Assembly: GCA_049521795.1 (NCBI GenBank)
Contig: JBEKOM010000002.1
Location: 224,940 to 288,939, forward strand
Reading direction: 5' to 3'
From: Candidatus Bathyarchaeia archaeon
GTDB lineage: Archaea; Thermoproteota; Bathyarchaeia; Bathyarchaeales; Bathycorpusculaceae
DNA length: 64,000 bases
The translations under genes and the position numbers were made by a program. Within the stretch, counting starts at the first letter, position 1. The number at the start of each line of letters is the position of its first letter. Shown here in pieces: positions 7,903 through 64,000 of the stretch. A model generated the notes under the pieces. The model ran no database searches, was not told where the DNA came from, and worked only from the letters and a program-made list of their open reading frames with translations.

Positions 7903-7959
7903 GCGCGCGCGCTGAGCAAGTGCATGTGAAGAATCGTTAGCTCTTCTAGAACGCGCGCG
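7903..7959. repeat. Pair of (GC)n palindromes (7903-7912, 7952-7959) flanking 39 bp
   Basis: GCGCGCGCGC and CGCGCGCG read directly. Confidence 0.9.
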
Positions 7960-7967
7960 GATGCGAG

Positions 7968-9380: not shown

Positions 9381-9424
9381 ACGCTCCCGTTCTCTCCTCA
9401 ATGCTAAATGTACTCTCTGCACAT

Positions 9425-9452
9425 TATTTAAACGCTGTGGAACTATCCTCTA
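9425..9452 (-). promoter_or_regulatory. Operator A plus TATA box
   Basis: TAGAG GATAG TTCCA CAG CG TTTAAATA on minus strand. Confidence 0.65.
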
Positions 9453-10045: not shown

Positions 10046-10212
10046 GTGTTGTCAACCCTTAACGCTTACAAATGTTCTCGTCACCCAAATAAACTTCGCG
10101 TTCCCCATCTGATTTTCAACATGAAAGAGCGATGATCAATATTTAGTTTCTGTGGGTTTTAAACAAAAAAAAGGAGGTTCGTGACTCTGCTAGTCACTAC
10201 AGCTTCTGCTTT

Positions 10213-11610: not shown

Positions 11611-11668
11611 ATAGTCCTTTCTCCTTCTCCTTTTGCTTATTCAGCAAGTTAGTTAACCACTTTCTAAC

Positions 11669-11696
11669 TATTTAAGCTTAATGGAAATAAGTTCTA
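11669..11696 (-). promoter_or_regulatory. Operator A plus TATA box
   Basis: TAGAA CTTAT TTCCA TTA AG CTTAAATA on minus strand. Confidence 0.65.
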
Positions 11697-11799
11697 TATT
11701 GGTTAACTAAGCTTAGAACAGTGCGCCACTCACTTGCTTCTATGAAAAACCAGGGTTTAACGTAAGTACATGTTGAGTGTAGAGGGTTGTTCCCAGAGA

Positions 11800-11998
11800 G
11801 CGCGCGCTTCGGAACTGCTTTGTTTATACAGTTCTATGTAGCCGCAGCCAACGCAATAGAAGACTTTAATGTAGTCGCGCGCGCAACTAGCAAAACCTTG
11901 AAGCTTCTCGTCTTGTTTTCATGTAGCTGATGATTGGATTGGCAAAGGTGCGCCCAACCCATAAATACTAATTGATTTAGGGACAAGCCAGCGCGCGC
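11800..11998. repeat. Three (GC)n palindromes (11800-11807, 11876-11884, 11991-11998) separating short unique segments
   Basis: Read directly; inserts of 68 and 106 bp. Confidence 0.9.
11808..11875 (-). pseudogene. C-terminal fragment of a small Zn-ribbon protein
   Basis: Translates DYIKVFYCVGCGYIELYKQ (CxxCGYIELY); bounded by GC runs, no start codon. Confidence 0.6.
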
Positions 11999-12030
11999 CA
12001 TATGCGACGTATAAGCGTGAACGGATGGGG

Positions 12031-12384
12031 CTAAGACGGCGAAGATGAAGGGATGTAACCGTCTGTCCATACCACAGCGTAGTCGACCTTGAAGCTTGGA
12101 TTACCTTCCTGTCCATAGACATATTCGGGACATGTCCAGGAACTCTGAGCTATGCCGCTACCGTAAACAACAGAACCATTATTGTACATATCGTAATATA
12201 TGGCACGAAAAGCGTAGCCTGACGGTGGTGGATTGCCGTCCCAAGCAAGATAAGTCTGTCCTGGATATATCCTCTTTGAATAAGACACGTCCCTTGGCGG
12301 GATTATGAAATGAATCACTACTGCCACTGTGACAGTCACTGCTAGAATCACCGCTACGATTTTACCAACCTTGCGCTCTTTCAT
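12031..12384 (-). CDS. Small membrane-anchored hypothetical protein
   Basis: Basic N-terminus plus TM, Tyr-rich extracellular part. Confidence 0.7.
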   Translation of the reverse strand: MKERKVGKIVAVILAVTVTVAVVIHFIIPPRDVSYSKRIYPGQTYLAWDGNPPPSGYAFRAIYYDMYNNGSVVYGSGIAQSSWTCPEYVYGQEGNPSFKVDYAVVWTDGYIPSSSPS

Positions 12385-12686
12385 CTATTCACTTGAGACT
12401 AGGCGGCAGGCTGTACTATAAATGTGTTCTGCCAGCTCAACAGGCCTACGCGAAGCAGCTCCCAGCGAAGAACCGTCCCCGTCATTCGTTACCCTGCAAG
12501 ACCGATGAAAAGGGTCAAGGACCTCTTCAAAGTTGACAGGAAATTCAGAAGTCACGGACGCTCAGAACTCAAAAGGGCGTGAAGAGCGCACGCCAGCTCA
12601 AGCCGCCCTGAACACTCGCAAACCAGGCTACCCAAGAAGCACCGTAGTCGTAATGTCGTTTAAAACAGAAAAAGGGGATTGTGGAT

Positions 12687-12798
12687 TTACCAGCGTTTCC
12701 TCAACAAACGGCGTGACCCGGCTGCAGCTGCTGCAAGGGCTATTACTAGCAAGGCCAGTGCAACCCATGGAGTGATGACCTGCACGGTGGTTATCGGA
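12687..12798 (-). pseudogene. Orphan C-terminal membrane anchor paralogous to that of 13660..15339
   Basis: APITTVQVITPWVALALL...RRLLRKRW vs APINTLMLLAPWIALG...RRLLKKHW; homology stops at the GC run 12799-12808. Confidence 0.75.
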
Positions 12799-12808
12799 GC
12801 GCGCGCGC

Positions 12809-13307
12809 CTGTCTGGAACACCCTAGGGATGTTATCGGTAACGAAAATGTGCGGAGGGTTTTCGAAAAGGCGGCAGCAGAACCATTCCAAGACGAGGTGG
12901 ATGAGAAGTTGGCTGTATGCCTATCCAGAGCTCTAACTCACCTTGGAGATTCTGCCCAGCATAGTATAGAACGGAAATGGATGTCAGGAAAGCTTCTCCC
13001 GATCCTCTTGAATAATATGAAGAACAGAGACGAGAAAGCTAACGTGTGGTCCATGAAAGAAGCCGTGAAGACAGCAGGTCTGAGCGAGGAATTAAGATTT
13101 CAGGTCAGAAATAAGCTGCTTGAGTTTTGGTTTTCAAAAAAAGTCAAAGCGGACGATAAAGTTGGTACCGAGGTTTGCAAGCAATTGTCGCGTCTCACCT
13201 CAGAAGGCTTGTTTGAGACGGTTAGGGCAAGAATGAAGAGCAAAGATAAAGGGGTCGAAGCGAAAGCTGAACTTCTTCTGAGGGAACTAGGGAAATGTCT
13301 GCTCTAA
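12809..13307 (+). pseudogene. Probable 5'-truncated alpha-helical (HEAT-like) protein
   Basis: Frame is open from the GC run through GTG 12849 to stop 13307; no clear RBS or promoter. Confidence 0.5.
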
Positions 13308-13659
13308 GCTTTAATGAGTAATCAGCATGCGCGCTGAAAAAGCAAGTGATCGAGAGACAGCTTCAGACTTCCAAAAATAGTATATATACTATCTTGATTG
13401 ACATAGGACGTTATTCGAAATCTCTACGTGCTTGGAGAGTAGTACATGAATTGATTCGTTGGACCCCCTCCCACCCCTCTGGTAAAGATGTACGCCAGAA
13501 CTGCTGACAGTGCAAGCTCAAAATCCTAGATAGACTCACAATTCTCCAATTTGAGATTTAGAACAAAAAGGAGGAAGAGGTTAATTTGATTAGCGTGCGC
13601 ACGCACGAGAGCAGCCCTGCTCGGGCGATAAACTTGATAGAAAAAAAGGGATATGAGTT

Positions 13660-15339
13660 TTACCAGTGCTTCTTGAGCAAGCGTCGGTACATGGCGACTG
13701 CAGAGGCCGCGGCAATGAGTCCTAGAGCAATCCATGGAGCCAGTAGCATAAGCGTGTTTATTGGAGCCAGAGTCTGCATTGGGATCGGAGCCCATTCTCC
13801 ACCGACCTTTGAGTTCCACTTCCAAGTCACTGAGGAAGCTGTGGTTATCGTGAAACTCACGCTGTTCCCTCCTCCAGAAGCAGGCGCACTTCCAGTTCCA
13901 GTCCAGCCGATGCTCGAGTAGATGTTGCTACCCACGAGCACAGGAGATGTAACGGAAGACGTCACTAGAGTATTAGGGGCGTACCAGCCCGCTCCAGTCG
14001 GTGTGTCGTAAGGCGATGTTACAGTCAAGAGGAACTGCTCATTCCAGAAGAACTGTATGGTGTGAGGTGCGTTTACAGCCGTGAATTTGTAGCTGGTTCC
14101 AGCAGTGAGAGCTCCACCATCGATCTTGTAGCCTGTGCATACCCACTCGTGACCGGCTGAAACAACGTCCGGACTTGTAACAGAAGCAGTGAAGTCAGTG
14201 CCATCGTCAACCCATGCTGAAGCAGTGTATGGCGCGCCATGAGCGCTGTTAACCGTTATGTACCATTGAGTCTTCCACTGTGCAATCGCTTCTTTAGCCT
14301 TGTCCATTGTTATCGGGTTGCTTTGCAAATAGTTTGTTCCTGAGGCATCCCAAGTCCAAGTGGTGAAGACGTGTTGTTTTCCAACGCCATCTGGAACTGT
14401 TCCAGACGTCAGGCCAGCGTAAGCAGTTGTGCCGTCACCGTACCAGCCCGCGCCAGTAGTAGTACCGTAAGCAGAAGTGACTTTCAAGTAGTAGTTGGTC
14501 GACCCAGTCGCCTGAACACTGTTCCAAGTGATAGTGCCACCGCCGGCGCCAGCACCCCAGTTGCCAACGAATACAAAGGGCTTCACGTTAGTCCAATCAA
14601 AGGTCGGGGCACCTGGGATAACAAAGACGCTTCCCGGAGGAAATGTTGGAAGCCACACCATAGCTGGATAGGAAAATGGATCAGTTGTCGCGTAGACCCG
14701 AATCAATGGAGTGAAGAGGACATCGCCACTTGCCAAGTAGTGGAACGTCAGTTGCATGTCGAAAGTGTCGTAGAGTGGGTTCCCGGTGCAGTGGACTCCA
14801 CCTAATGGCGCGATGACCCCTAGATAGGGGGTGTTGAAGCCTTGTCCGAGAATATTCCCATCCCATGGCGTGCTCTTGTTTTCGTACAAGTTGCTTGCTG
14901 CATCAGTGTATGCCGTCTGTGTTAGGTAATAATCTGAACCAATGGGTCCTCCACCTCCAGCGACGAGAAGGCTAGAGAATGCGGAAGATGATGGATTAAT
15001 CCAAGGCGACCCAAAAGCCGTTTGTTGCGTCACTCCAACCTGTATCCCCGCCACTTCGAGCGGAGCTGGCCATCCAGCGTAGACACCGGGACCAGGTGTG
15101 GGAAACCTGCTCTGTGTCATGTCAATGCCATAAACAGTCACTACCAAGTCTGCCTTTGTAACATCGAAACTCACATGTGTGTCATCGTAGATGGTGCCTG
15201 AACCACCATCCCATGCTCCAAGTCCTGTTGTAACAGAACCACCCGGAAAAACAACAGTGATAGCATGTGCTGCTGGTATAGCTATTACAGCAAATAACAT
15301 TAGGGACAATAGAACGATAGGAACAATTGTCTTTTTCAC
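13660..15339 (-). CDS. Cell-surface protein with GxGWY beta-sandwich repeats and VGG...LLAPW membrane anchor
   Basis: Signal peptide; repeats homologous to those of 5967..7571; C-terminal TM with basic tail. Confidence 0.82.
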   Translation of the reverse strand: MKKTIVPIVLLSLMLFAVIAIPAAHAITVVFPGGSVTTGLGAWDGGSGTIYDDTHVSFDVTKADLVVTVYGIDMTQSRFPTPGPGVYAGWPAPLEVAGIQVGVTQQTAFGSPWINPSSSAFSSLLVAGGGGPIGSDYYLTQTAYTDAASNLYENKSTPWDGNILGQGFNTPYLGVIAPLGGVHCTGNPLYDTFDMQLTFHYLASGDVLFTPLIRVYATTDPFSYPAMVWLPTFPPGSVFVIPGAPTFDWTNVKPFVFVGNWGAGAGGGTITWNSVQATGSTNYYLKVTSAYGTTTGAGWYGDGTTAYAGLTSGTVPDGVGKQHVFTTWTWDASGTNYLQSNPITMDKAKEAIAQWKTQWYITVNSAHGAPYTASAWVDDGTDFTASVTSPDVVSAGHEWVCTGYKIDGGALTAGTSYKFTAVNAPHTIQFFWNEQFLLTVTSPYDTPTGAGWYAPNTLVTSSVTSPVLVGSNIYSSIGWTGTGSAPASGGGNSVSFTITTASSVTWKWNSKVGGEWAPIPMQTLAPINTLMLLAPWIALGLIAAASAVAMYRRLLKKHW

Positions 15340-15403
15340 TTTCTCCCTTTCTCCTTTTATTTAACTATTACCCTTTCGGGTAAACTAAACTTACGGTTTC
15401 TAA

Positions 15404-15431
15404 TATTTAACGTTTATGGAACGCTCTTCTA
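15404..15431 (-). promoter_or_regulatory. Operator A plus TATA box
   Basis: TAGAA GAGCG TTCCA TAA AC GTTAAATA on minus strand. Confidence 0.65.
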
Positions 15432-15630
15432 TAGCCGCTCGGTATCTACGTGAGCAAGGCTTATCAAATGCAAAAAAAAGCGCGCGCGAGACAACGCAAA
15501 AAGCCCTTGTTGCCCATGAGCGTGCCGCTGAATCATGAAGACTAGAACCAGAAGAAAGGATAGGCCTAAATCAGTGTACGCATCTTTCTTCCAATAGAAG
15601 TGAATAGCACGGGAAACGAAGGCTTCTTCA

Positions 15631-16578
15631 GTGAAAAGCGGAAAGACACATAGGACGGAGAAATCCAGAAAGCGCCTGCTTAGGAAGAGAGTTTCCTACG
15701 TCTTCGCCGCCATGGTCGCACTCATACTTGTCGGCGTGCTTGCATACACCTTTCTGAGCCCCAGAAGCCCAACCATCAATGACAGCACTCCGAAGATCGC
15801 CATAGTCGACCAGCTTAGCGCCCAGTGGCCTGACCCAGAGTTCAACCAGACAGTCCAGGGCATCTTGAACCAAACAGGCCTCAAAGTCGACTACTACCCA
15901 AGCCAAGACGTCACCGTTGATTTCTACCGAAACCTACCATCGCAAAATTACAAACTCATAATCTTCAGGGTTCACTCAACAGCTGAAACGGGCGCTAAAG
16001 ACATGCCGCCATGGGTAGTTTTCTTCACATCAGAAAACTACAGCGGCACAGCCCACGTCTCGGAGCAATCGGACATGCGAGTCGTGTACGTCAAATTCCC
16101 CGATGTTGCGCAGTTGTACTTCGGCATAACCCCAACGTTCGTGGAGAACTCAACGGAAGGAAAATTCAACGACACAACGATAATAGCCATGGGCTGCGAC
16201 GGCTTGAATAAGACCAGCATGGCTGAGGCTTTCATTGAAAAGGGAGCAAAAGCCTACATAAGCTGGAACGGGTTCGTATCAGCAGACCACACGGACGAGG
16301 CGACAGAGTGCCTGCTCCGCCATCTCGTCACGGAAAACCAAACCGTTGAAGAGGCCGTGAAGGAAACCATGAACGAGGTGGGCCCCGACCCGACAGACAA
16401 AAGCGTACTGATGTTCTACCCAGACAACGCTGGGCCGAGTTTTCTCCTCCTCAGCGCAGCCACGGCCGCTCCAACAGTCATGGCCACTCCTGCAGTCAGC
16501 GCGCCCGGTCTCGTCAACGCAACTGTCGCCACCCCGACAGTTAGGACAGCAAGGAAGAACACCAACCAAAAAGACTGA
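15631..16578 (+). CDS. Membrane-anchored protein, possible caspase/gingipain-like fold
   Basis: N-terminal TM; IIFRVHS and IIAMGC resemble a His/Cys dyad; MAEAFIEKGAKAYISW. Confidence 0.65.
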   Translation: MKSGKTHRTEKSRKRLLRKRVSYVFAAMVALILVGVLAYTFLSPRSPTINDSTPKIAIVDQLSAQWPDPEFNQTVQGILNQTGLKVDYYPSQDVTVDFYRNLPSQNYKLIIFRVHSTAETGAKDMPPWVVFFTSENYSGTAHVSEQSDMRVVYVKFPDVAQLYFGITPTFVENSTEGKFNDTTIIAMGCDGLNKTSMAEAFIEKGAKAYISWNGFVSADHTDEATECLLRHLVTENQTVEEAVKETMNEVGPDPTDKSVLMFYPDNAGPSFLLLSAATAAPTVMATPAVSAPGLVNATVATPTVRTARKNTNQKD

Positions 16579-16600
16579 AACTCGCGCGCGCTAGTTGAAA

Positions 16601-16628
16601 TAGAACTCTATTCCATAACCCTTATACT
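16601..16628 (+). promoter_or_regulatory. Operator A plus TATA box
   Basis: TAGAA CTCTA TTCCA TAA CC CTTATACT. Confidence 0.65.
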
Positions 16629-16654
16629 GTCTTTTCTGATTCATACTTGAAAAG

Positions 16655-19339
16655 ATGCGTTCAGAACAGATGATAGGTAGTAGAATCTTGAAACGCGCAG
16701 CAAGCATATTTGTCATGGTAATAATAGTGTTTGCCAGTCTGTCAACGCCGTTCGCTCGGTCCGAACAGACAATGACAAGCCGTAGCCTGGGAATTAGGCC
16801 CCAACTGGAACGTAAAGACACGTACATGCTGGATCTCCAATACCCCTTATCTGGACCGGACGCCTGGGACATACCACATAATAACACAAGCTCGGACGAC
16901 GAAATCCGTGGTATGAAGGCAGTGGCATCCATGATAGCCTCGTACTATGGTGGAAACCTGAGTCAAGACCGCATTGCATACTACGTGTACTACGATTATC
17001 TCCGCTACCCGTCTCCGGAAGACGACCTCGGCGATGGATCTGGCATTATCCAAGGTATTAACATCCTTGACATACTTCACTGGGAGTTAAACGGGGCCTT
17101 ATTCACCCGTTTCATGGACGCGAGACCCGGTTTTTCCGAGATAGAGTACTGGATAGATTCCAACATTCCGATCATCGTAGACCAAGGAGGCAACAACCAC
17201 CTCCTAGCGATAATCGACGGCTACGACACAAACGGTGAGATGGTTTATGTCCTTGACCCCTTATTAGGAAATGAAACCAAGATCCCATACGATAGCTTGA
17301 GCATATTTGTCGTGTGGATTGTCACGGGCGACCATATAACGGCCCGGTCGGATGAACCTACGATTTGGATGGATTCCGACGGTGACGGAGTGGTCGACTT
17401 TGACGAGATCAACAGATTTCATACCGACCCTTACAATAACGACACATATGGTCTCGGAATAAGCGACAAGACGTGGATAGAACTCACCTATATGGGTAAA
17501 CTCACCTATCCGACAGCGACGTTCACATGTTCCCCAGAAACGCCGTTAATCAATGAACAAATAACGTTCGATGCCTCAAAAAGCATCGGAAACATAACGG
17601 CATACAAATGGAATTTCGGAGACAACAACGCGACTACGACAGCGGCACCAACGACAACCCATGCTTATGCCCAGCCGGAAACCTACAACGTGACTCTGAC
17701 AGTGGATGATAGCAACGGTCTTTGGAACACTACCACATTCTCGGTGACCGTGGGCGAGAGTGAAACTCAGAGCGGGAGTGAGTATGTTTCCGAAGCGGCC
17801 TTCTACCGACAGTCTCTTGACCGAAAGGGGTATGCGCCCACGGAAGGCCCTGAAACGCCCGATCTCCTCTGGACAACGTACCTTAATGATTCGGTGACAA
17901 CGTCACCTGTAGTGGCTGACGGAAAAGTTTTCATTGGTACCTCAGGTGGAAAGTTCTACGCGTTAGACGCAACCAGCGGCGGGATCATCTGGACATTTGA
18001 TGCCGGAAGCCCTGTTTCCTCATCGCCAGCTTTCCAGAACGGAGTGGTTTTTTTCGGCACCGAAAACCCTGGAAACATATACGCTCTTGACGCATCCACC
18101 GGCCTTCCTATCTGGCAATACCAAGTTGGCACGACGGCTGCACTGCCCTCTTCCCCTGGAGTTATCGACAACAAGGTCATTATGGGTACCTCTGATGGCA
18201 AACTTCTCTGCCTAAACGAATCGGAAGGCCAGTTACTGTGGAATACTCAGCTGGGCGCAGGACCTCTTTCCTCACCGGCTATACAGAACGGCACGATCTT
18301 TATCACGTCAACCCTAGGGGTTGACGCAGTTGACTTGCAGACCGGAACATCTATTTGGGAATTTGCAACAAGCTGGCCAGTCACTTCAACCCCCGCGGTT
18401 GCCGACGGCCTGGTCCTTGTTGGAACCGAAAACAATGACCACGTATACGCTCTAGACCAGAGCACCGGAAGTCCCGTATGGAACTATTTCACAAGCGGCT
18501 GGCTCACTTCACCAGCGGTGGACACCTCTGCACAGCTCGTGATCGTTGGATCGAAAGACTACAAGCTCTATGCCTTTAATGAGCAAACAGGCCTTCTCGA
18601 ATGGAGGTACTTTAACGGCCCAAACTACCTAACAGCATCAGCAATAAGCGCGAACGGGTTGGTGTACGTAGGAACCTTTGACGGAAACCTGCATTGCGTC
18701 AACGAGACCACTGGCGAGGAAATCTGGAACTACAGCGTGACTGCACCAATAGTTTCTTCACCAACCATCATTTATGAGCACGTTTTGGTGGGAGCGCAGG
18801 ATGGGAGCATTTACTGTTTCGGCCCGCCCTTTATAGTCCACAAAATCGCAGTTTCAAACCTAATCGAGTCCAGTTCTGAGGTGGGACAAGGATACAGCTT
18901 GAACGTGAACGTAACCGCCGAGAATCAGGGCGATTCTTTGGAAACCTTCAACGTGACACTCTACGCAAACGGAACCGCAATCAAAACAGAGCAGATAGTC
19001 CTGATGAACTCAAGCTTTACAACCATAACCTTTGAATGGAACACCACAGGCTTTGCCTATGGCAACTACACGATAAGCGCCTATGCAACGCCGGTTCCAG
19101 GCGAAACAAACACGACAGACAACACACTAGTCGGCGGCTTGATAGTCGTGACCATCCCAGGAGACATAAACGGCGACGCCACTGTGAACATCCTCGACGC
19201 AATAGCGCTGGCCAACTCCTTCAACAGCCACCCAGGCGATCCAAACTGGAACCCCAACGCAGACATAAACAGTGATGGCGTCGTAAACATCTTAGACGCT
19301 ATAATACTGGCAAACCACTTCTTAGAACACTACCTATAA
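16655..19339 (+). CDS. Secreted multidomain protein: C39-like peptidase domain, PKD, PQQ-like beta-propeller, CARDB, dockerin
   Basis: SMIASYYGGNLSQDRI; YKWNFGD; repeated YALDAxTGxxxW; PGDINGDATVNILD / ADINSDGVVNILD. Confidence 0.85.
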   Translation: MRSEQMIGSRILKRAASIFVMVIIVFASLSTPFARSEQTMTSRSLGIRPQLERKDTYMLDLQYPLSGPDAWDIPHNNTSSDDEIRGMKAVASMIASYYGGNLSQDRIAYYVYYDYLRYPSPEDDLGDGSGIIQGINILDILHWELNGALFTRFMDARPGFSEIEYWIDSNIPIIVDQGGNNHLLAIIDGYDTNGEMVYVLDPLLGNETKIPYDSLSIFVVWIVTGDHITARSDEPTIWMDSDGDGVVDFDEINRFHTDPYNNDTYGLGISDKTWIELTYMGKLTYPTATFTCSPETPLINEQITFDASKSIGNITAYKWNFGDNNATTTAAPTTTHAYAQPETYNVTLTVDDSNGLWNTTTFSVTVGESETQSGSEYVSEAAFYRQSLDRKGYAPTEGPETPDLLWTTYLNDSVTTSPVVADGKVFIGTSGGKFYALDATSGGIIWTFDAGSPVSSSPAFQNGVVFFGTENPGNIYALDASTGLPIWQYQVGTTAALPSSPGVIDNKVIMGTSDGKLLCLNESEGQLLWNTQLGAGPLSSPAIQNGTIFITSTLGVDAVDLQTGTSIWEFATSWPVTSTPAVADGLVLVGTENNDHVYALDQSTGSPVWNYFTSGWLTSPAVDTSAQLVIVGSKDYKLYAFNEQTGLLEWRYFNGPNYLTASAISANGLVYVGTFDGNLHCVNETTGEEIWNYSVTAPIVSSPTIIYEHVLVGAQDGSIYCFGPPFIVHKIAVSNLIESSSEVGQGYSLNVNVTAENQGDSLETFNVTLYANGTAIKTEQIVLMNSSFTTITFEWNTTGFAYGNYTISAYATPVPGETNTTDNTLVGGLIVVTIPGDINGDATVNILDAIALANSFNSHPGDPNWNPNADINSDGVVNILDAIILANHFLEHYL

Positions 19340-19356
19340 TCCTCATGGTCTGTTAC

Positions 19357-19534
19357 AAGGAGAAAGGAGAATACTGTCAATATTGATAATCGATGTTTTG
19401 TGTTTGTTAATGTTCTCTGCCCTTGCGTCTCAAGTAAAGGCGAAACAGACTACACTCTTTCAGGACCATCTTGAAAGCCTCGCGGTGAGCACTTTGAGCG
19501 CGCCGGCAACGGTCTTCGTGGATCCTGCGCGCGC
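19357..19534 (+). pseudogene. Chimeric remnant: RBS plus signal peptide start joined to a cohesin N-terminal scrap
   Basis: AAGGAGAAAGGAGA; LCLLMFSALASQVKA...TLFQDHLES; GC run; PATVFVDP; GC run. Confidence 0.55.
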
Positions 19535-19786
19535 TAGTTCATATTCGTTGTGTAGATGTCTTCTATAGGAATTCTCTAGAATGCAAAATTCATGAAAGCT
19601 GTACTGATGCTCACTTGAAGATGGAGAATGAAACACCGCGCAAACCATAAAAAAGGTCATTGCGCGCCGGAGGCACTACGGAGAAAGGAGAAAGGACTAC
19701 CCTGTAGTATCACCAGTCGCGCTCTGTCTTCTATAATAAACATCTACGATATTTAAAACTCCTCAATCTTTACGATGCAATCAGCA

Positions 19787-19822
19787 TTAACCATAAGGGA
19801 AACAACTTAACGATCAGGTAAA
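19787..19822. promoter_or_regulatory. Tandem operator B sites (TTAACC-N4-GGTTAA type)
   Basis: TTAACC ATAA GGGAAA and TTAACG ATCA GGTAAA just upstream of a TATA-like TATTTAAC. Confidence 0.5.
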
Positions 19823-19850
19823 TATTTAACTACCAAAACATTAAAATCAT

Positions 19851-20417
19851 TTGAGCTTAGACTATCTGAGGGTGCCCAAGCTGAGTAGCCCAAAGTCAGA
19901 AGTCGATTCCTGGAGGGTCTTGCGCGTCTTTGCTAATGAAGTTAGAGTGGCAGTGGTGAGATTGTTGGCACAATTTGAATGGAGATCTCTATCAGAGATT
20001 GCTGAAAAACTAGAAAGTGATTATGGTTGGAAAATGACGTTGCCAGGACTGCTCAAACACATGAAAGAATTGGAAGATGCTGGAATAGTGCACCATGAGT
20101 CCGGCGTCTTCGCGAAAGTGTCGGACGCGAGAAAAACCATCTACACATTGCAAGGAAAAGAAAGAGTTGAGAAAATACTGAAACAACTGGAGGACAACGT
20201 AGCAAATCCATTAGAAGCCGGACTGATATTCAGCGAAACCGCTAAACTGGCGCGTGAAGTTGAAGGTGTAGGAGCGACGGTGACCACAGAAGGACAAAGA
20301 CATCTTGAATCCTTACTTGCTAAATGTGAATCACAAAAAATCTCCGGCTATCTCACAGAAGACGAGAAGAAGAAAGTGAAGCTCTGGAGAATGATGCTGA
20401 AGATTATGAAAGAATGA
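19851..20417 (+). CDS. Winged-helix (ArsR-like) transcription regulator (start may be GTG 19872)
   Basis: FANEVRVAVVRLL...LSEIAEKL...LLKHMKELEDAGIV. Confidence 0.8.
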   Translation: MSLDYLRVPKLSSPKSEVDSWRVLRVFANEVRVAVVRLLAQFEWRSLSEIAEKLESDYGWKMTLPGLLKHMKELEDAGIVHHESGVFAKVSDARKTIYTLQGKERVEKILKQLEDNVANPLEAGLIFSETAKLAREVEGVGATVTTEGQRHLESLLAKCESQKISGYLTEDEKKKVKLWRMMLKIMKE

Positions 20418-20433
20418 TAGCGCGCGTAGATGC

Positions 20434-21231
20434 TTAGAGTTTTGATGGTTGAATCAGGTCTTGAATGAACTTTGCGACATTTTCTTTTTCAGGTTTTGGA
20501 AACTCACCAAGCAGCAGATTCGCTATTTCCTGAAGGCTTTTGGCAAACTGACTTTCGGGGAATCTCCGATAGGCCAAAAAGGATTCTTCAGACCTCACTC
20601 CCCCATAAGACTTTGAAACATTCGAGTCTTCTCTAACTTGAGCTATGCAGGGGACCTCGAGAAGACCCTCAACGTCTTTAACGAAGTCTTTCGTGAACTT
20701 CTCAGGCGTCTTAATCCTGTTCAACACGAAGCCAAGCGGGACACATTTCAGCAAATATCTGCCCAACCGAATCGTATCTATGGCCGATTCAACACACAAG
20801 ACAAACTCATCCTCCGTCAAGATAAGAACAAAGTATTCACATACGCCAAGCGACAAAAACGCTGCCCTACCAAGAGGAAACGGAGCGTCGACGAGCATGA
20901 AATCCGCTTTTACGCCTAGGAGCTTCTTTGCAAAATTGACCGGGTCCATTTCAAAATAATCCTGCAACGAAACCCCAGATGGCACCAGAAACAGATTGTT
21001 AACACCCGTGGGGTATACTGCGTTCTCAATCTCAATATCTTTTTTCACGACTTCGTCAAGCTTGAAACCAGAAGAGGTGTTGATGCCAAGAATCGTCTGC
21101 AGGGGCCTATTGGGGTCTCCCTCAACCAGAACCACCTTCTTACCGCTCTCAGCTAGAGCGGCGCCAACATTCGCCGTCAGGAGCGACTTACCCACACCGC
21201 CCTTTGACACGGCAAAAGTAATTGACCTCAT
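20434..21231 (-). CDS. MinD/ParA family ATPase
   Basis: SKGGVGKS deviant Walker A; VVLVEGD; LGFVLNR. Confidence 0.85.
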   Translation of the reverse strand: MRSITFAVSKGGVGKSLLTANVGAALAESGKKVVLVEGDPNRPLQTILGINTSSGFKLDEVVKKDIEIENAVYPTGVNNLFLVPSGVSLQDYFEMDPVNFAKKLLGVKADFMLVDAPFPLGRAAFLSLGVCEYFVLILTEDEFVLCVESAIDTIRLGRYLLKCVPLGFVLNRIKTPEKFTKDFVKDVEGLLEVPCIAQVREDSNVSKSYGGVRSEESFLAYRRFPESQFAKSLQEIANLLLGEFPKPEKENVAKFIQDLIQPSKL

Positions 21232-21280
21232 TGGACATCAACAAGTGTGTAGACAATAGAGTCTAAATGGAGGCAGATAC

Positions 21281-21296
21281 TTAACCCAACGGTTAA
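21281..21296. promoter_or_regulatory. Operator B palindrome upstream of the MinD-like gene
   Basis: Perfect TTAACC CAAC GGTTAA. Confidence 0.5.
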
Positions 21297-21299
21297 GGT

Positions 21300-23147
21300 T
21301 TAACTTTTCTCGTCCTTTTCCTTCTTTTCAAAGCTTCCAATAACGTCCTGCAAAGTGTCTCGCGGCTGAATCTTGATACCATATTTCTTCTCGAATTCTC
21401 TGATTTTCAGGTCACGCCTCTCAACATCAGTCTCGAAAAGTGCTTGCGCAACCACAAGAGGGTTGAACGCCTGGAGAAGTCGCCTCTGCTCAACAATCTT
21501 TCGACGGTATTTGATGGTAAACACTCCTAGAACAGCCTCAACTAACACCATCCCGGCTATCCCCCAGAACCACCACTGAGACCATACGGACATTCCTGGA
21601 GACACAACAGACGCTACTGTTACCTCATGTTCCCCGTGGAGACTTGTGAAGTAGACCCACGTGTGCGTTCCGTTTGTGCTAATCACACTGTATGAAACCG
21701 AAGCATGGTCCACCGTGACTGCGAACGGAGGCGCGATCAGTACACTAGGGATTAGGATGCGGGAGAAACCCTTGTTCCCGGTCGCATTAACGTTGAAGCT
21801 TAACGTGCCAGTTTTGTTGTCTGGACTACGATTGTACTGCAATCCTGAAATCGTAGAATTGCTGATAACAGCAACAATGCAAGATTGGTTTTCGATGTCG
21901 ATGCTAAACTGCAAATACTGGCCCATCAGAGGATAGCTATCCTGGCTGTACACTCCCAGCCACCCTCTATCATCGACGATGTATGGCTTGTCTCCGATCC
22001 CGCTCGTATGCGTGTCAGCACCACCGTAGTCTCCCCAGAAGTTGCCTTGGGCGCCATCATCCCAGAAATTACCGAAAGAATCGTTGCTCGGTTGTTCGAC
22101 GTTCCTAATCAAGTTGTCAATGAAGTTGTTGTCAAAAAACCTGTTATTGCTGGAATTCCAGAGGCGAACTCCAAACTGATCGTTTGCCGAGATGTTGTTG
22201 CCTGAAATTCCGTTCCCGCCGGAATTGATGAACCATATTCCAAAAGTGTTATTGGAGACGTCGTCACCATTGAAGGCGTTGTCCGCAGAATCAAAGAGAA
22301 GTATTCCATACTCGTTGTTAAAAGATGCCGTGCTATCATCGAGGGTGTTGCCGCCAGAACCGTAAAAGTATATTCCGTACCCGTTCCTTGAAAAGTCGTT
22401 GCTTTGAAGAGTGTTGTTGAAAGAATACTGGAGCCCAATTCCGCGGCCTTGGTTTGAGACGACAAGGTTGCCCGAAAGGGTGTTGTTGCTCGAACCGTAT
22501 GAATATATCCCGTTCCAGCCGCTCGATGAAACATTGTTATCTGCAAGAACGTTATTTCTAGAAACGTCAAGATGAATTCCGTTCATGTTACCTGAGGCAA
22601 CGTTATCCGAAACACTGATGTTGGCAGAACCGTAGAGGTGTACCCCATATTCGTTGCCTAAAACATCGTTGTCTTCAACAATGCTGTCGTTAGACCCATA
22701 CAAGTATATACCATTATAGTTGTCTTTCACGATGTTGCCGCTTATGTTGTTATCACTTGATTGGTACACTTGTATGCCACTGTAACCAAACATGCTGTTT
22801 CGTACAGTCAAACCTGTGACACTGACGTTGTCAGCCGTTATTCGAATAACGCTGCCCAATGCACGACCGTCAATAATAGTGCTGAGCACATTATCCCCTA
22901 TAAGGGACACCGACTTGTTCACTACAACGTTTTCATAGTACGTTCCCGAATTCACTCGAATCGTGTGTCCACTCAAAGTTGCATCAGCATCTATGGCCTC
23001 CTGAATCGTCGCATACCCCAGCCCTGTATCAATGTTAAGAACTGGCAACGTGGTTTCTGCCAGCACATTGAAAGACATTGCAGCGGTCAAGAGCGAGGCC
23101 AATAGTAAAACAAGAATAGCGGTGAGAAGAGCTCTGCCCAATTTCAT
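21300..23147 (-). CDS. NosD/CASH right-handed beta-helix surface protein with C-terminal TM and cytoplasmic tail
   Basis: YATIQEAIDA, GTYYENVVVNKS, many GIxLxxSxNN repeats, GNFWGDYGG, DSYPLMG. Confidence 0.85.
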   Translation of the reverse strand: MKLGRALLTAILVLLLASLLTAAMSFNVLAETTLPVLNIDTGLGYATIQEAIDADATLSGHTIRVNSGTYYENVVVNKSVSLIGDNVLSTIIDGRALGSVIRITADNVSVTGLTVRNSMFGYSGIQVYQSSDNNISGNIVKDNYNGIYLYGSNDSIVEDNDVLGNEYGVHLYGSANISVSDNVASGNMNGIHLDVSRNNVLADNNVSSSGWNGIYSYGSSNNTLSGNLVVSNQGRGIGLQYSFNNTLQSNDFSRNGYGIYFYGSGGNTLDDSTASFNNEYGILLFDSADNAFNGDDVSNNTFGIWFINSGGNGISGNNISANDQFGVRLWNSSNNRFFDNNFIDNLIRNVEQPSNDSFGNFWDDGAQGNFWGDYGGADTHTSGIGDKPYIVDDRGWLGVYSQDSYPLMGQYLQFSIDIENQSCIVAVISNSTISGLQYNRSPDNKTGTLSFNVNATGNKGFSRILIPSVLIAPPFAVTVDHASVSYSVISTNGTHTWVYFTSLHGEHEVTVASVVSPGMSVWSQWWFWGIAGMVLVEAVLGVFTIKYRRKIVEQRRLLQAFNPLVVAQALFETDVERRDLKIREFEKKYGIKIQPRDTLQDVIGSFEKKEKDEKS

Positions 23148-23283
23148 CCCAGTACAATATATTGTTAAGATGAAGCGACTTCTTTTATGCGTATTGGTAG
23201 CGCGCGCTGGTAGCAAACTGAAACCTGGTATCTAAGACCAGAACAGGTAAATACGAGGGTCACCATAATTAAATTGATCCGCT

Positions 23284-24360
23284 TTGAGAAACGGAAAGGC
23301 AAGTTTGCTTGCTCTAATAATTCTAGCGTTATTTGTGGGTATATATCCACTAGGTAAAGCGACGCCCGGAACCGTAGTGGCCGTTGATCCAACGGCAAGC
23401 ACAGTCAAATTGGGACAGACCTTTGGAATCAATATCAACATTACCGATGTTACAGGGCTTCTGGGGTTTGACTTCCAGCTGTCGTATGACGCTACTGTTT
23501 TGAAGCTCGTAGACATTCAGCAAGGGTCCTTCCTGAAGAGCGTCGGATCCACTCTCGTAATCAATCTCACAACCAATGGGGTCATTTGGTTGGCTGTGGC
23601 TGTCTACAGCCCTCAACCGCTGTCATCGGCCAATGGAAGCGGCGTTCTCGCCACAGCAACCTTTAAAGCGGTAGCGGCAGGCGAATCCTTGCTAGACTTA
23701 TATTCTAAAGACCCCTACACGCCAGACGAAGTTAAACTTGTAAGCGATCCTCCGCCAGACAGCGTGGCAGCGATTCCCAATGTGGCCGCCGACGGACACG
23801 TATTCGTTTCGTCTGATCCCGCAGACCCACCAGACCCACCGCCAAACCCTCCGCCGCCAACAACCCCTGCGCTGACAGCGCACGCGCTTGCTCCCAAAAC
23901 TGTTGTCGGACAAGGCTACAAGCTACCCATAAGTGTAACGACCGCGAATCAGGGAGACCTCACCGAGACCTTCAGCGTCGCCAGTTACGCAAACACTGCT
24001 GAAATAGGAGAACAAACCCTAACCCTGTCAAATGGAAGCTCCACCACCGTCTCTTTTGTCTGGAACACTAATGGCTTTGCTTACGGCAACTACTCCGTAA
24101 CTGCTCAGGCTTTCGTTCCAGGGCAAACGAGCACGGCTAGCGACACTGTCGTTGATGCCTTCGTGATCGTAACAATTCCAGGTGATCTTAGCGGTGACTT
24201 CAAGGTTAACATAAGCGATGCCATTCTGCTATCATCGGCCTTCAATTCTAAACCGGGCAGCTCACACTGGAACCCCAACGCAGACATAAACGGCGACGGC
24301 GTCGTAAACATCCTTGACTCCATAATACTGGCAAACCACTTCCTCGAACACTACCCTTAA
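23284..24360 (+). CDS. Secreted cohesin + Pro linker + CARDB + dockerin protein
   Basis: FGININITDVTGLLGFDFQLSYD...GSGVLATATF; PPDPPPNPPPP; PGDLSGDFKVNISD / ADINGDGVVNILD. Confidence 0.87.
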   Translation: MRNGKASLLALIILALFVGIYPLGKATPGTVVAVDPTASTVKLGQTFGININITDVTGLLGFDFQLSYDATVLKLVDIQQGSFLKSVGSTLVINLTTNGVIWLAVAVYSPQPLSSANGSGVLATATFKAVAAGESLLDLYSKDPYTPDEVKLVSDPPPDSVAAIPNVAADGHVFVSSDPADPPDPPPNPPPPTTPALTAHALAPKTVVGQGYKLPISVTTANQGDLTETFSVASYANTAEIGEQTLTLSNGSSTTVSFVWNTNGFAYGNYSVTAQAFVPGQTSTASDTVVDAFVIVTIPGDLSGDFKVNISDAILLSSAFNSKPGSSHWNPNADINGDGVVNILDSIILANHFLEHYP

Positions 24361-24562
24361 CCCCGCGTTTCTCGGCGACACTCCGCGGTTTCTGACCAAA
24401 GCGACAATGCGTAAATAAGTAGGCTATTCGCGCGCGCTCGTAAGAGACGCTGTGAGAAGATTCTTGGAGCGGTATGGTTATTACCCGGGAATCAAGCGGA
24501 GGTCGAACACAGTTGAAACTTGTGCACCAACACTAGGATTCGACAACGATCCGTAGCTACTA

Positions 24563-24878
24563 GTGCGCTAGCGTGTTTCTGAATTCTTTGGGGAAGTGGC
24601 TTGTGCGGCTCATTCTGCTCCCTAACCATATTTGGCTCCAAATATGCATGATACATTGAAACCGAGGAGGGGTACCAGACGCCGCCCCACGTTCATGCGC
24701 ATGTAAAGAAGACTCTGCTGCGTCGCGGACAAATACAACGTTGGGTCATATAGCATACCCGGGGGGAGGGTGTGAGTGTGAGCACGCAAACACCCAGTCC
24801 GAACCATGACAGTAACCATCGACCATCGGAAAACGCTATGCCTGCTCTTGAACGGAATTCAGGAACAAGCATGCGCGC
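24563..24878. mobile_element. MITE-like element copy A (316 bp, imperfect 24-bp terminal inverted repeats ending in GCGCGC)
   Basis: GTGCGCTAGCGTGTTTCTGAATTC ... GAATTCAGGAACAAGCATGCGCGC (19/24 match); homologous in reverse to 51237-51443. Confidence 0.65.
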
Positions 24879-24906
24879 TCCGAGAAGGAACTTCAAGGTA
24901 CGCCTG

Positions 24907-62616: not shown

Positions 62617-63057
62617 TCATTTTTTCTTGAAGAATAACCAGTTCTGCTTACCCTTTAGCTTGACGAGGACGTAGGACCCCCGTAGCTTTTCGCCGTTTAT
62701 TTCCACGATGAGTTTGTCCTCCTTCCTGTCCATCAACTTGTACGTTCCCTTATCCCAGATCTCCACCGTTCCAGCGCCGTATTCGCCCTTAGGAATTGTT
62801 CCTTGAAAAGTGGCGTATGGTATGGGGTGGTCCTCAACCTGGACCGCGAGTCTTTTGACACCCAGGTCGATGGGCGGCTCTTTCGGGATTGCCCAGCTTT
62901 TCAGCGTGCCGTCCATTTCCAAGCGCAGGTCGTAGTGCAGATGTGTTGCAGCGTGTTTCTGAACAACGTAGATGCAGCCCTGTCCTTCTCGTAGCTGGCC
63001 TTTAGGCTCCGCTGTCTTGTCGAAGTTTCTCTTGTTCTTATGCTCCCTCAAGTTCAA
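62617..63057 (-). CDS. Stand-alone LigD 3'-phosphoesterase (NHEJ)
   Basis: [43 protein letters not shown]. Confidence 0.92.
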
Positions 63058-63277
63058 ACAGCGATTCTCCTCTCACACGAACCTCTATCTGCTCGGATGT
63101 TTTTGGCTCTAGGAGGAATTCTCTGAGGTCAGCGTTGGACATACCCGCTTTGCCACTGATCTTCTAGCGCGCGCTAGCCACGCCTTTCACATGTGGCATG
63201 TCATCCTTGAGTTTCAGTCTTCCGGCCTGCGTCACTCTGTTCGATGTCTTGGCAATTAAACTTTCCCAGCGTAGTGC

Positions 63278-63465
63278 CTAGAAAGGAGAGCTGGTTTGGA
63301 GGTTAAAAAAGAGAGGGATTACTCTAGGAGTGTTTTTTGACGATGCTTTATATATTTGCTCCCGTAGAGTTGTGAAGGTGTCGTGGTGGTCTTTCTCGTC
63401 TTTCAGTATCTCCATGAAGAGGAAGGCGGTTGTCTCCTCGCTCTCTTTGCGGGCGGCCTCGATAA
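63278..63465 (-). pseudogene. C-terminal fragment of a ferritin-like protein
   Basis: IEAARKESEETTAFLFMEILKDEKDHHDTFTTL; begins at GCGCACGC junction. Confidence 0.7.
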
Positions 63466-63473
63466 GCGTGCGC

Positions 63474-63608
63474 CATGAAATCACAGATTAAACTCGGTTT
63501 TCCCTCTGCAATATTGTGCAGAAAACCAAGATAAGGTTCAAGCTTAGCTTTAATCAGAGCATGATGCACTTTCCACGACAGCCTTTCATAAGCCAAATTG
63601 AAAACATA
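63474..63608 (-). pseudogene. cas1: Internal fragment of a Cas1-family integrase
   Basis: VFNLAYERLSWKVHHALIKAKLEPYLGFLH..EGKPSLICDFM matches the Cas1 N.Y...GLDP..GFLH...PSL..D motif. Confidence 0.8.
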
Positions 63609-63722
63609 GCGCTTGCTAACCTAAACAGTGACTACGACGGTGATGGCGACTAATATTTTCGCGCGCCAAAAAATCTTATATCTAAGTAATTGCTCCTTTC
63701 TGAATAGAAGTTGTGATTATTC

Positions 63723-64000
63723 ATGGCTGTTAAAACAACAACAGGATATATAGACTTGCTAAACAAAGCTGTTGAGCGTGAAATTGCCGTTTCACTTCAG
63801 TATATGCTTCAACATGCAAAAATGGAAAAGCTCGTGCGCAGAACAATCCCTGAAAACGTCCTTCTGGACAAAACCACCTATGACGCCGTTGGAAAATTCC
63901 TAAGAGAAATTGCCATCCAAGAAATGAAACATGCCGCAAGCATAATAGCGCGTATTTACTATCTTGGAGGGAAAGCAACCACTAAATCCGGCAAACCTAA
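63723..64000 (+). CDS. Ferritin-like/bacterioferritin protein (runs off window)
   Basis: Manual translation: IDLLNKAVEREIAVSLQYMLQH...EIAIQEMKHAASIIARIYYLGG. Confidence 0.88.
   Translation, partial: MAVKTTTGYIDLLNKAVEREIAVSLQYMLQHAKMEKLVRRTIPENVLLDKTTYDAVGKFLREIAIQEMKHAASIIARIYYLGGKATTKSGKP

Follow-up and report, generated by a model that had tools for sequence, protein, structure and literature searches.

We examined the right-hand end of the window, by which we mean the whole 64,000-nucleotide stretch of DNA analysed. The window belongs to an assembly (G000) of 69 contigs with a completeness of 98.75%; other G numbers denote comparison genomes. Positions 62617 to 64000 carry the following features:

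62617..63057, minus strand: intact, stand-alone LigD 3'-phosphoesterase gene (PF13298, E 4.2e-40)
63058..63163, minus strand: C-terminal remnant of a putative 2-oxoacid:ferredoxin oxidoreductase beta-like gene (minus-frame peptide match to G004)
63164..63174, no strand: A(GC)4 joint, replacing ~2.95 kb that G002 retains
63175..63289, minus strand: first ~8 codons of a small Cys-rich ORF, with spacer, in ancestral position
63307..63463, minus strand: tail (last ~38 codons) of a ferritin-like gene, with downstream DNA (local alignment to G004)
63464..63477, no strand: 14-nt joint between the ferritin tail and the Cas1 piece (between the homology ends of the alignments)
63478..63607, minus strand: 130-nt Cas1 piece (residues ~199-241 of ~345)
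63608..63619, no strand: ~12-nt joint, AGCGCTTGCTAA, between the Cas1 piece and an element end (comparison with relatives)
63620..63659, plus strand: degraded end of a second element, comprising a (CCCAAA)n inverted-repeat remnant and ~37 nt of subterminal GACTACGAC-type sequence
63660..63666, no strand: decayed copy of a shared TAGCGCGCGCTA motif (CGCGCGC in G000)
63723..64000, plus strand: 5' part of a 326-aa tandem ferritin-like gene, continuing on contig C8

The LigD 3'-phosphoesterase, which belongs to an end-joining repair family and neighbours the debris interval, is syntenic in G001 at 89% identity. The peptide encoded at 63058..63163 matches the C terminus of a 321-aa ORF upstream of the same gene in G004, and its oxidoreductase name is our reading of that protein. 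Homology of the window to G001 and G002 ends at 63163/63165, where G002 retains two large ORFs and most of the 45-48-aa Cys-rich ORF. The latter is intact in G001 (45 aa) and G004 (48 aa), and the remaining 63175..63289 segment is 82-83% identical to G001 and G002. The GC motifs reported in the initial annotation all lie where it placed them: CTAGCGCGCGCTAG at 63164-63177; GCGTGCGC, a (GC)4 altered by a single C-to-T change, at 63466-63473 within the 14-nt joint; AGCGCT at 63608-63613 within the ~12-nt joint; and CGCGCGC at 63660, occupying 63660-63666. The TAGCGCGCGCTA motif is complete at the orthologous place in G001 and carries point changes in G000 and G002.

The ferritin tail alone scores below the PF00210 cut-off (E 0.004, 17.5 bits versus 24.5 bits). 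Its nucleotide identity is 81% to the 3' end of a 139-aa gene that is intact in G004 (PF00210, E 2.7e-29). In G004 the ferritin gene is followed by the Cys-rich ORF, the two large ORFs and the LigD 3'-phosphoesterase gene, and in G008 and G018 a homolog of the tail lies 3.3-4.2 kb past the end of the LigD match. Because the same gene order is kept in G004, alignment and synteny together show the tail to be an in-place remnant of the ancestral 139-aa gene. Splicing of a ferritin piece from elsewhere, as first proposed, is therefore not what happened here: the tail is a resident remnant of a gene that relatives keep intact. The Cas1 and ferritin sequences do adjoin, with the 14-nt joint lying between them rather than a direct fusion. 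The ferritin paralog starts at 63723, as originally called, is cut by the contig end, and reads through a 95-nt overlap with contig C8 to give the 326-aa tandem ferritin-like protein, which has a 326-aa ORF counterpart in G001. We rejected this gene as cargo of the adjoining element: a matching right end was not found downstream, and a shared GC motif interrupts the element end some 50 nt in.

The minus-strand segment 63348-63620 gives a significant PF01867 match in a Cas1 profile search (E 3.1e-9, 36.8 bits against a cut-off of 22.3), covering 43 of the 283 profile positions (192-234) and aligning to residues ~199-241 of a 346-aa Bathyarchaeia Cas1. The GFLH and PSLICD signatures singled out at the outset are present, and DNA alignment (63478-63607) sets the length of the piece at 43 codons, not 45. 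The piece retains the GFLH histidine and the first aspartate (CDF) but neither the glutamate upstream nor the residue following CDF (equivalents of E163 and E243), leaving the catalytic set of four incomplete. It is 91% identical in nucleotides to a longer, stop-interrupted fragment (G001:C1:862715-862844). Its nearest protein is P0093 (28 of 31 residues) and, more broadly, the P0001-like proteins of an array-free Cas1 family. The piece is non-functional debris. That the two overlapping minus-strand ORFs (82 and 68 aa) form a working small gene, or a regulatory RNA, as a chimera of Cas1 and ferritin parts is scarcely credible, as the parts lie in different frames, the interval is unrelated DNA in the two closest relatives, and the catalytic set is broken. 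The scrap itself is junk; the interest lies in the transposon family from which such debris derives and in the GC joints.

A Cas1 family carried on a mobile element

The family to which the scrap belongs consists of proteins of ~345 aa, almost all from Bathyarchaeia. An intact relative (L048:9903-10946) matches PF01867 at E 9e-45 and TIGR00287 at 149 bits, against a cut-off of 71.7. Residues E163, H228, D240 and E243 (P0001 numbering) are invariant in 22 of 22 intact members and, as we read the alignment, would correspond to E141, H208, D218 and D221 of the E. coli protein.

A k-mer scan of the 69 G000 contigs found no CRISPR arrays of at least three repeats, in agreement with the initial annotation. 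CRISPR arrays often go unassembled. Profile searches of the G000 assembly returned no matches to Cas2, DevR/Cas7 or Cas4, and no intact cas1 was found in it. Across the family, an array-like repeat lies within 10 kb in only one of 78 loci, with three copies only, and Cas2 and Cas4 gave no Pfam matches among the cas1 neighbours scanned. These observations support a CRISPR-independent Cas1 family. The scrap does match general Cas1 models, and a canonical array-Csa1-Cas1-Cas2 locus exists in a relative (G004:C24). However, its closest proteins, P0093 and the P0001-like group, are those of the array-free family, the canonical Cas1 proteins of relatives score E-73 to E-77 with Pfam versus E-45 to E-51 for that family, and neither cas2, cas4, cas7 nor an array was found in G000, making in-place decay of an ordinary CRISPR-cas adaptation operon extremely improbable.

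Among the 41 loci with enough flanking sequence for a generic inverted-repeat scan, cas1 is flanked by exact inverted arms of at least 14 nt in 20; the scan found no such arm in the other 21. A strict scan for (CCCAAA)n ends was positive in only 3 of the 41. At least eight loci combine terminal inverted repeats with flanking, perfect or near-perfect AT-rich direct repeats of 12-13 bp, matching at 12/12 positions in L080, L089, L093, L097, L115 and L116 and at 13/13 in L059 and L078. These features show that the Cas1 family is carried on a mobile element, and they bear out the earlier proposal that a solo-Cas1 element circulates in this lineage. The duplications at these insertions are AT-rich 12-13-mers, not GC.

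The bounded elements span 2.8-8.5 kb and, according to their ORF maps, contain no ORF above about 400 aa. The conserved partner proteins of cas1 are 100-370 aa in length. One, F3, has the fold of an MCM AAA+ domain (pLDDT 73; Foldseek E 6e-7, probability 1.0), an identity that comes from the fold search, since sequence-profile searches of F1 and F3 against PDB sequences returned nothing significant. The other, F1, is a small DxD..YH protein with weak PrimPol/RepB-like fold matches (probability 0.5-0.7). With an MCM-like ATPase aboard but no ORF of polymerase size, the bounded elements look like casposons without PolB.

Casposons are Cas1-encoding self-synthesising transposons (Krupovic et al. 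2014, PMC4046053). They resemble the Bathyarchaeia family in having a stand-alone Cas1 that is not linked to CRISPR, inverted repeats at their termini, target-site duplications about a dozen bases long, insertions that adjoin one another or recur, and four conserved acidic/histidine positions (PMC4046053). The Bathyarchaeia elements differ in their small size, in the telomere-like (CCCAAA)n repeats of part of the family, and in having, instead of a family-B polymerase (none, since no ORF is large enough), the MCM-like ATPase and the small DxD..YH protein. Profile scores to PDB chains, the sole measure by which we set the family against casposase and CRISPR Cas1, place it nearer the archaeal CRISPR Cas1 4n06 (E 4e-28) than 6opm (E 1.5e-18), which we take to be the solved casposase, its structure file saying only Cas1. 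The Cas1-solo group 1 of Methanomicrobiales, described in the same paper as lacking the full active-site set and showing no sign of transfer (PMC4046053), is likewise a stand-alone cas1 without CRISPR, whereas the Bathyarchaeia family has all four positions together with transposon hallmarks.

Our literature search found no report of a polymerase-less, MCM-bearing Cas1 transposon family in Bathyarchaeia, and such a casposon family would be previously undescribed. This Cas1-bearing family is widespread in Bathyarchaeia. Should its Cas1 prove to be the integrase, the known casposon-type elements would no longer be limited to self-synthesising ones, and the family provides a data point on how the Cas1 integrase travelled before or beside CRISPR.

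Whereas the boundary features of a casposon are found in the loci of relatives, the window retains only a degraded end. The element interior at this end (63620..63659) points right. At the same site, G001 and G002 keep TAAACTTTA followed by a CCCAAACCCAAAC-type repeat, which matches the ends of elements of this kind, and similar subterminal words occur beside other ends in G000. G000 further contains 17 end-like repeats of the element and 5'-truncated cas1 3' pieces, one long (C10) and four short. Profile searches for F1 and F3 gave no matches in G000, while the F3 profile finds G002 at E 2e-98. G000 holds only debris of the element.

GC runs are enriched at homology breakpoints

In G000, GCGCGCGC occurs 417 times against 29.5 expected, a 14-fold excess that ranks it first among the 256 octamer palindromes, ahead of an unrelated one at 3.8-fold in second place. 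By comparison, GCGTGCGC is 2-fold up (66 observed, 31 expected) and AGCGCT is not unusual (516 observed, 561 expected). The palindrome is largely intergenic, with 18% of sites inside long ORFs, which together account for 81% of the genome, and across the 41 genomes searched GCGCGCGC is mostly restricted to the genus of G000.

In cyanobacteria, the highly iterated octamer palindrome HIP1, GCGATCGC (Elhai 2015, PMC4390886; Xu et al. 2018, PMC5861425), is similarly a single 8-10-bp palindrome many-fold over-represented in one lineage. GCGCGCGC shows the HIP-type pattern of one short palindrome standing far above both expectation and all others. The Bathyarchaeia palindrome differs in being A(GC)4T, in its largely intergenic location, in its enrichment at indel and replacement joints, and in being new sequence at a deletion in two cases. 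HIP1 sites reportedly mark a deletion in Synechococcus, according to older literature.

Collinear alignment of G000 and G001 places (GC)>=3 within 10 nt of an end at 20 of 46 junctions. Similarly, 19 of 80 (GC)>=4 sites in G001 lie within 10 nt of a homology end, compared with 5.5 +/- 2.1 for random non-ORF positions (200 draws, maximum 13), showing that GC runs are enriched at homology breakpoints. In two of four deletions that could be polarised, the GC run is new sequence at the joint and the long state is ancestral: window 63164, where neither G002 breakpoint has a GC run, and G001 545.08 kb. At the G001 683.6 kb deletion the junction run partly pre-exists in the ancestral flank, and the one at G000 C4:75.0 kb is a simple deletion by CAG microhomology, next to a GC-rich word that was already there.

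Three sources of the GC runs were considered and rejected. REP/RAYT-type spread fails because the Y1 transposase (PF01797), present in 1 of 41 genomes, is absent from G000 and from 10 of 10 genus relatives. Generic microsatellite slippage fails because only GC/CG repeats are enriched, other dinucleotide repeats standing at 0.1-2-fold for n = 3-4. The runs are not termini of repeated elements either, as the flanks of 1130 sites are unconserved beyond A at -1 and T at +1; the ends of two inspected multi-copy families are not GC runs. Restriction-ligation at GCGCGC was set aside, intact cas1 being without such a site at the fragment end points. Ku as the determinant correlates imperfectly with the runs: it turned up in G000 and in 7 of the 10 genus relatives, and is present in G016 (7 sites) and G040 (1 site) and not found in G024 (227 sites).

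The solo-element Cas1 had itself been put forward as catalyst of the GC joints. Many Cas1 fragments of the genus are bounded by GC runs (6 of 16 ends in one survey, more in another), and 2 of 17 element ends in G000 abut them. However, motif abundance does not track intact cas1, which leaves Cas1 unsupported as joint-maker: GCGCGCGC counts are 417 and 464 in G000 and G001, without intact cas1, and 3 in G014 (an intact family member), 14 in G012, 2 in G015, 0 in G025 and 1 in G034, all with it. Further, element insertions duplicate an AT-rich 12-13-mer rather than GC, non-Cas1 fragments and plain deletions are also flanked by GC runs, and outside the GC-rich lineage 9 of 10 truncated cas1 copies have no GC run at the 5' truncation point. 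We regard catalysis of the joints by Cas1 as very unlikely.

Origin of the Cas1 scrap

The initial observation is confirmed, and its interpretation holds for a mobile, CRISPR-independent Cas1 though not for ferritin splicing or Cas1-made joints. While the identities and limits of the pieces are shown by the alignments, the sequence of events, and the choice between in-place decay of the scrap and its capture from another locus, are matters we can only infer. The scrap is probably internal cas1 debris of the CRISPR-independent transposon, lying between the in-place ferritin tail and the end of another copy. Most likely, one or two elements would have inserted between the ferritin and tandem-ferritin genes in the ancestor of G000, G001 and G002. 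Successive deletions would then have taken nearly the whole element, along with two thirds of the ferritin gene. Many deletion and replacement joints in the genus contain a short A(GC)nT palindrome, intact or decayed, and the joints described here belong to this type.

Several observations sit uneasily with this account. The neighbouring element end has its interior facing away from the scrap and does not include it, so that in-place decay needs a second, oppositely oriented copy and two deletions. The joints flanking the scrap are only GC-like, one having a mismatch to (GC)4 and the other consisting of AGCGCT, which occurs at chance frequency. Two of the four polarised deletions involve a partly pre-existing run or CAG microhomology, and the armless 21 of 41 family loci also count against it. 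Finally, the fillers that G001 (150 bp) and G002 (180 bp) carry in this interval are without similarity to element proteins, a point against shared decay of one element in the three genomes. The G002 filler instead matches, at 76% identity, the 3' end of an unrelated ORF of 460 aa on G000 contig C14, which fits capture of a stray fragment better than shared decay.

An alternative, possible though less probable, is that the scrap was excised or duplicated from another locus and joined as filler into a double-strand break by an end-joining pathway that adds a GC run at each joint. The break would also have removed the 5' part of the ferritin gene, and this account differs from in-place debris only in how the scrap arrived. 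Three unrelated fillers occupy the same interval in G000, G001 and G002, and those of G001 and G002 are each flanked on both sides by perfect (GC)3-4. The match of the G002 filler to an unrelated ORF also favours capture, and at G001:806.8 kb a 66-nt Cas1 scrap lies between two perfect (GC)4 runs in an otherwise syntenic intergenic gap. The occurrence of Ku in the genus and the adjacent LigD 3'-phosphoesterase gene are also consistent with capture. Against it, no donor with matching end points was found, to our knowledge no enzyme adds alternating GC, Ku presence and site counts are mismatched in G016, G040 and G024, and the element end lies 12 nt from the scrap, which makes a local origin plausible.

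It is conceivable, if rather unlikely, that a repair pathway, perhaps of the Ku/LigD type, adds self-complementary A(GC)n tails to DNA ends, in which case the palindromes would be scars of deletions, captures and the whittling-down of the element. Such tails would let any two ends pair, and hundreds of A(GC)nT palindromes would form a permanent, countable record of genome erosion. More generally, the concentration of a lineage-specific GC palindrome of 10 bp where deletions and replacements were joined would be a readable marker of that erosion, and if the runs are truly added at repair, they point to new end-joining chemistry in archaea.

Ku-dependent end-joining junctions can contain filler DNA and short non-templated insertions. 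The Bathyarchaeia joints resemble them in the short extra sequence at deletions and the capture of unrelated fragments, and Ku and LigD-type genes are present in the genus of G000. They differ in the imperfect correlation of Ku with GC sites and in the nature of the insert, which here is a defined self-complementary repeat, made by no enzyme known to us, rather than random or templated bases.

The Cas1 piece and its ferritin neighbor

The initial annotation had described a 45-codon Cas1 piece in this interval. A match to Pfam PF01867 (36.8 bits against a cut-off of 22.3; E 3.1e-9; profile positions 192-234 of 283) upholds its identity, with the length revised by alignment to 43 residues. Its counterpart in a 346-aa Bathyarchaeia Cas1 is residues ~199-241, at about 70-75% identity. 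The four GC motifs named alongside it all lie where they had been placed, and AGCGCT alone occurs at chance frequency (516 seen versus 561 expected). The interval contains the following features.

62617-63057, minus strand: intact stand-alone LigD 3'-phosphoesterase (LigD-PE; profile match), adjoining the finding
Between LigD-PE and the run at 63164: remnant of a 321-aa gene (C-terminal ~100 nt), in the order seen in related genome G004
63164-63174: A(GC)4 run, then the first codons of a Cys-rich ORF
63307-63463, minus strand: tail of a ferritin-like gene and downstream DNA, 81% nucleotide identity to G004
63464-63477: 14-nt joint between ferritin tail and Cas1 scrap, containing GCGTGCGC
63478-63607, minus strand: Cas1 scrap, 43 residues, PF01867

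The ferritin tail and the Cas1 scrap read in different frames. The ferritin piece had been thought to be spliced in, a view contradicted by G004, which keeps the ancestral gene order with the tail in place: a 139-aa ferritin-like gene (intact; PF00210, E 2.7e-29), a 48-aa Cys-rich ORF, ORFs of 640 and 321 aa, and LigD-PE. The window retains this order in ruined form, and the ferritin piece belongs to this locus rather than having come from elsewhere. Genome G002 retains 2.9 kb between both breakpoints and has a GC run at neither; therefore, CTAGCGCGCGCTAG at 63164 is new sequence at a separate ~2.95-kb deletion. The lost 640-aa and 321-aa ORFs look like 2-oxoacid:ferredoxin oxidoreductase subunits. 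The same operon is gone from G001 through a different, smaller deletion that spared the Cys-rich ORF, which is 45-48 aa in relatives. Compared at 63164-63177 with loci L018 (G002:C19) and L019 (G004:C137), the window's assembly (G000) is without the ~2.95-kb operon and most of the Cys-rich ORF.

The interval around the scrap is hypervariable: G001, whose flanking genes are 89-96% identical, has an unrelated filler there, and so has G002. Fillers of about 150 bp (G001) and about 180 bp (G002) are mutually unrelated and unlike the scrap, and each has perfect (GC)3-4 on both sides. The sole match of the G001 filler is an element-end repeat, that is, a terminal inverted repeat of the Cas1-bearing transposon; that of G002 corresponds, at 76% identity, to the final 194 nt of an unrelated ORF of 460 aa on G000 contig C14. 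Orthologous to window 63608-63632, both G001 and G002 carry TAAACTTTA, then a repeat of the CCCAAACCCAAAC type and, subterminally, sequence of the GACTACGAC type. The G000 version of this element end is degraded, and the interior faces the side opposite the scrap. All three genomes have a TAGCGCGCGCTA-type motif in common about 50 nt farther along, intact in G001 only and decayed in G000 and G002. G001 also retains GGGG directly left of the AT-rich word, which we infer to be the final bases of another element end abutting the first.

The feature is dead DNA: a scrap of a transposon cas1 that GC-type joints connect with the resident remnant of the ferritin gene on one side and with an element end on the other. 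As to how the scrap arrived, decay in place and capture are about equally likely; we lean toward decay in place because the element end adjoins the scrap.

The low-GC (44.5%) contig C14 holds, at 6228-11742 (L136), the 460-aa ORF, which has an HxHxDH-type motif, together with a 506-aa ORF and others that by eye are methyltransferase-like and nuclease-like; the region may be a defense island. In G002, the filler at the scrap locus consists of the 3' end of an ORF related to this 460-aa one. The window is the terminal 64 kb of contig C2, and at its end 95 identical bases overlap between contigs C2 and C8 (window 63906-64000 = G000:C8:1-95). These contigs are neighbors, since gene order runs on as in G001, and a tandem ferritin-like gene bridges the gap.

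A mobile Cas1 family

No intact cas1 was found in G000 (2.44 Mb, 69 contigs). Contig C10 carries a 142-residue C-terminal Cas1 fragment with one frameshift, 96% identical to the full-length family protein P0001; besides this and the scrap there are two sub-threshold matches, and C4, C5, C7, and C11 hold four shorter cas1 3'-terminal pieces. Cas2, Cas4, DevR/Cas7, and CRISPR arrays were not found in the assembly. Across 26 related genomes, cas1 matches are mostly fragments retaining the 3' part of the gene, with 5' truncation points in the loci read at residues 113, 148, 181, 199, 206, 215, and 217.

Scanning a representative genome for each species yielded 78 family loci, nearly all labeled Bathyarchaeia; a single locus has array-like repeats within 10 kb, three repeats only. 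An intact member scores 149 bits against the general Cas1 model TIGR00287 (cut-off 71.7). The putative catalytic E/H/D/E positions, which we mapped ourselves onto the E. coli residues (numbers from PMC4046053), are invariant across 22 full-length members. The conserved partners of cas1, none with a significant match in Pfam or NCBIfam, are as follows.

~160 aa (F1), DxD...SS..YH.VF pattern: 19 of 53 loci
~130 aa: 12 loci
~300 aa (F3), P-loop: 11 loci
Alternative partner pair: 10 and 9 loci
~200 aa: directly upstream of cas1
~115 aa: directly downstream of cas1

The predicted structure of the ~300-aa partner (pLDDT 73) resembles MCM AAA+ domains (Foldseek E 6e-7, probability 1.0), and that of the ~160-aa partner (pLDDT 90) gives weak PrimPol or RepB-like matches.

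Inverted repeats, often (CCCAAA)n/(TTTGGG)n, surround the module in five of the six loci first examined, with AT-rich 12-13-mer direct repeats outside them. Among the 41 loci whose flanks were long enough, a systematic scan found exact inverted arms of 14-291 nt in 20; six of these 20 have flanking direct repeats matching at 12/12, and L059 and L078 at 13/13. The bounded elements span 2.8-8.5 kb, and their ORF maps contain no ORF above about 400 aa. They have the layout of casposons but are without a polymerase, and no description of such a Cas1 element was found in the partial texts that a literature search returned. These repeats, the 78 loci, and the near absence of arrays bear out the earlier proposal that a solo-Cas1 element circulates in this lineage. 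G000 has 17 end-like repeats; F1 and F3 profile searches of it gave no match, and the same F3 profile detects G002 at E 2e-98.

Directly downstream of an intact element, L048 (G002:C28) encodes at 11901-15598 ubiquitin-like, proteasome-like, and ThiF/E2 fusion proteins, which looks like a ubiquitin-type defense set. Family members or fragments also occur on contigs labeled Sulfotelmatobacter (L122), Levybacteria (L094), Aenigmatarchaeota (L081), Methanophagales (L101), and Jordarchaeum (L130), which suggests mis-binning or transfer; at L122 the GC joint and the break point are the same as in a G001 scrap. Several copies (G000:C10:62122 onward, C5:75422-75539, C11:103223-103312, L048:10947-10980) have a conserved palindrome of the GGAGATATCTCC type 15-25 nt past the stop codon of cas1; it may act as a terminator or belong to the element end. 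Locus L022 (G001:C1:858000-868000) is a 10-kb mosaic composed of about 15 short stretches whose homologs all lie on different G000 contigs; it also contains a Cas1 fragment.

GC runs at breakpoints

When 400 kb of G001 was compared with G000, a GC run lay no more than 10 nt from one of the four ends at 20 of the 46 collinear junctions. Of 80 GC sites, 19 are 10 nt or less from a homology end, versus 5.5 ± 2.1 for random non-ORF positions. The GC motifs hold up as the joint markers they had been taken for. Inside aligned blocks, GC motif variation is mostly point changes. Four cases could be polarized.

Window 63164: deletion; new GC run
G001 545.08 kb: 1.1-kb deletion; new GC run
G001 683.6 kb: 2.9-kb deletion; adjoining run partly pre-exists in the ancestral flank
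G000 C4:75.0 kb: 2.1-kb deletion with CAG microhomology; adjoins a pre-existing GC-rich word

GC additions are therefore clear in two of the four. Perfect (GC)n of at least four units lies within 10 nt of 6 of 16 Cas1 fragment ends in the genus, and the four short G000 cas1 pieces start at (GC)5 (two), a (GC)3-holding word (one), and a weaker GC word (one). Among 10 C-terminal Cas1 fragments from other lineages, just one has such a run at its 5' end, and one further fragment abuts an element end.

The palindrome GCGCGCGC tops all octamer palindromes in G000 (417 seen versus 29.5 expected), with A at -1 in 58% and T at +1 in 64% of 361 sites. ORFs of at least 120 aa make up 81% of the genome and hold 74 of the 417 sites. 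Density is about twice as high in convergent as in divergent intergenic regions, and distances of 30 nt or less number 59 of 297 from site to stop and 19 of 263 from site to start. Genus relatives have 29-464 sites per genome and most other family or order members 0-7, the rich exceptions outside the genus being G024 (227), G030 (53), G019 (30), and G039 (19). A search on HIP-type palindromes and GCGCGCGC found no description of the GC palindrome in the partial texts consulted.

Cas1 had been put forward as the agent of the GC joints. This is not supported: intact cas1 and motif abundance are uncoupled, the latter not following the former across genomes. No Y1 transposase was found in the genus. 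Ku occurs in G000, in 7 of its 10 genus relatives, and in only 2 of 30 more distant genomes searched, both GC-poor; no Ku was found in G024, which is GC-rich. At the boldest, the data would allow the GC runs to be read as additions made during end joining.

In G001, G002, G008, and G009, another LigD-PE-like match is found at a distance of 1-1.5 kb from Ku; the G000 coordinates that go with these Ku and LigD-PE observations are C5:42081-42620 and the window LigD-PE (62617-63057). Within the window, 21 of 30 sites of at least (GC)3 cluster in the 17 kb at 7900-24900, which suggests that this region is heavily rearranged. A multi-copy family of ~190-230 nt, which may represent a MITE, an RNA gene, or an intron piece, is conserved in its CCCTAGGGGGAGGGGG core and in its 3' part (G000:C1:74789-74978, C9:9684-9909, C5:49192-49416, and at least six more), and one copy is flanked on both sides by TA(GC)4TA.
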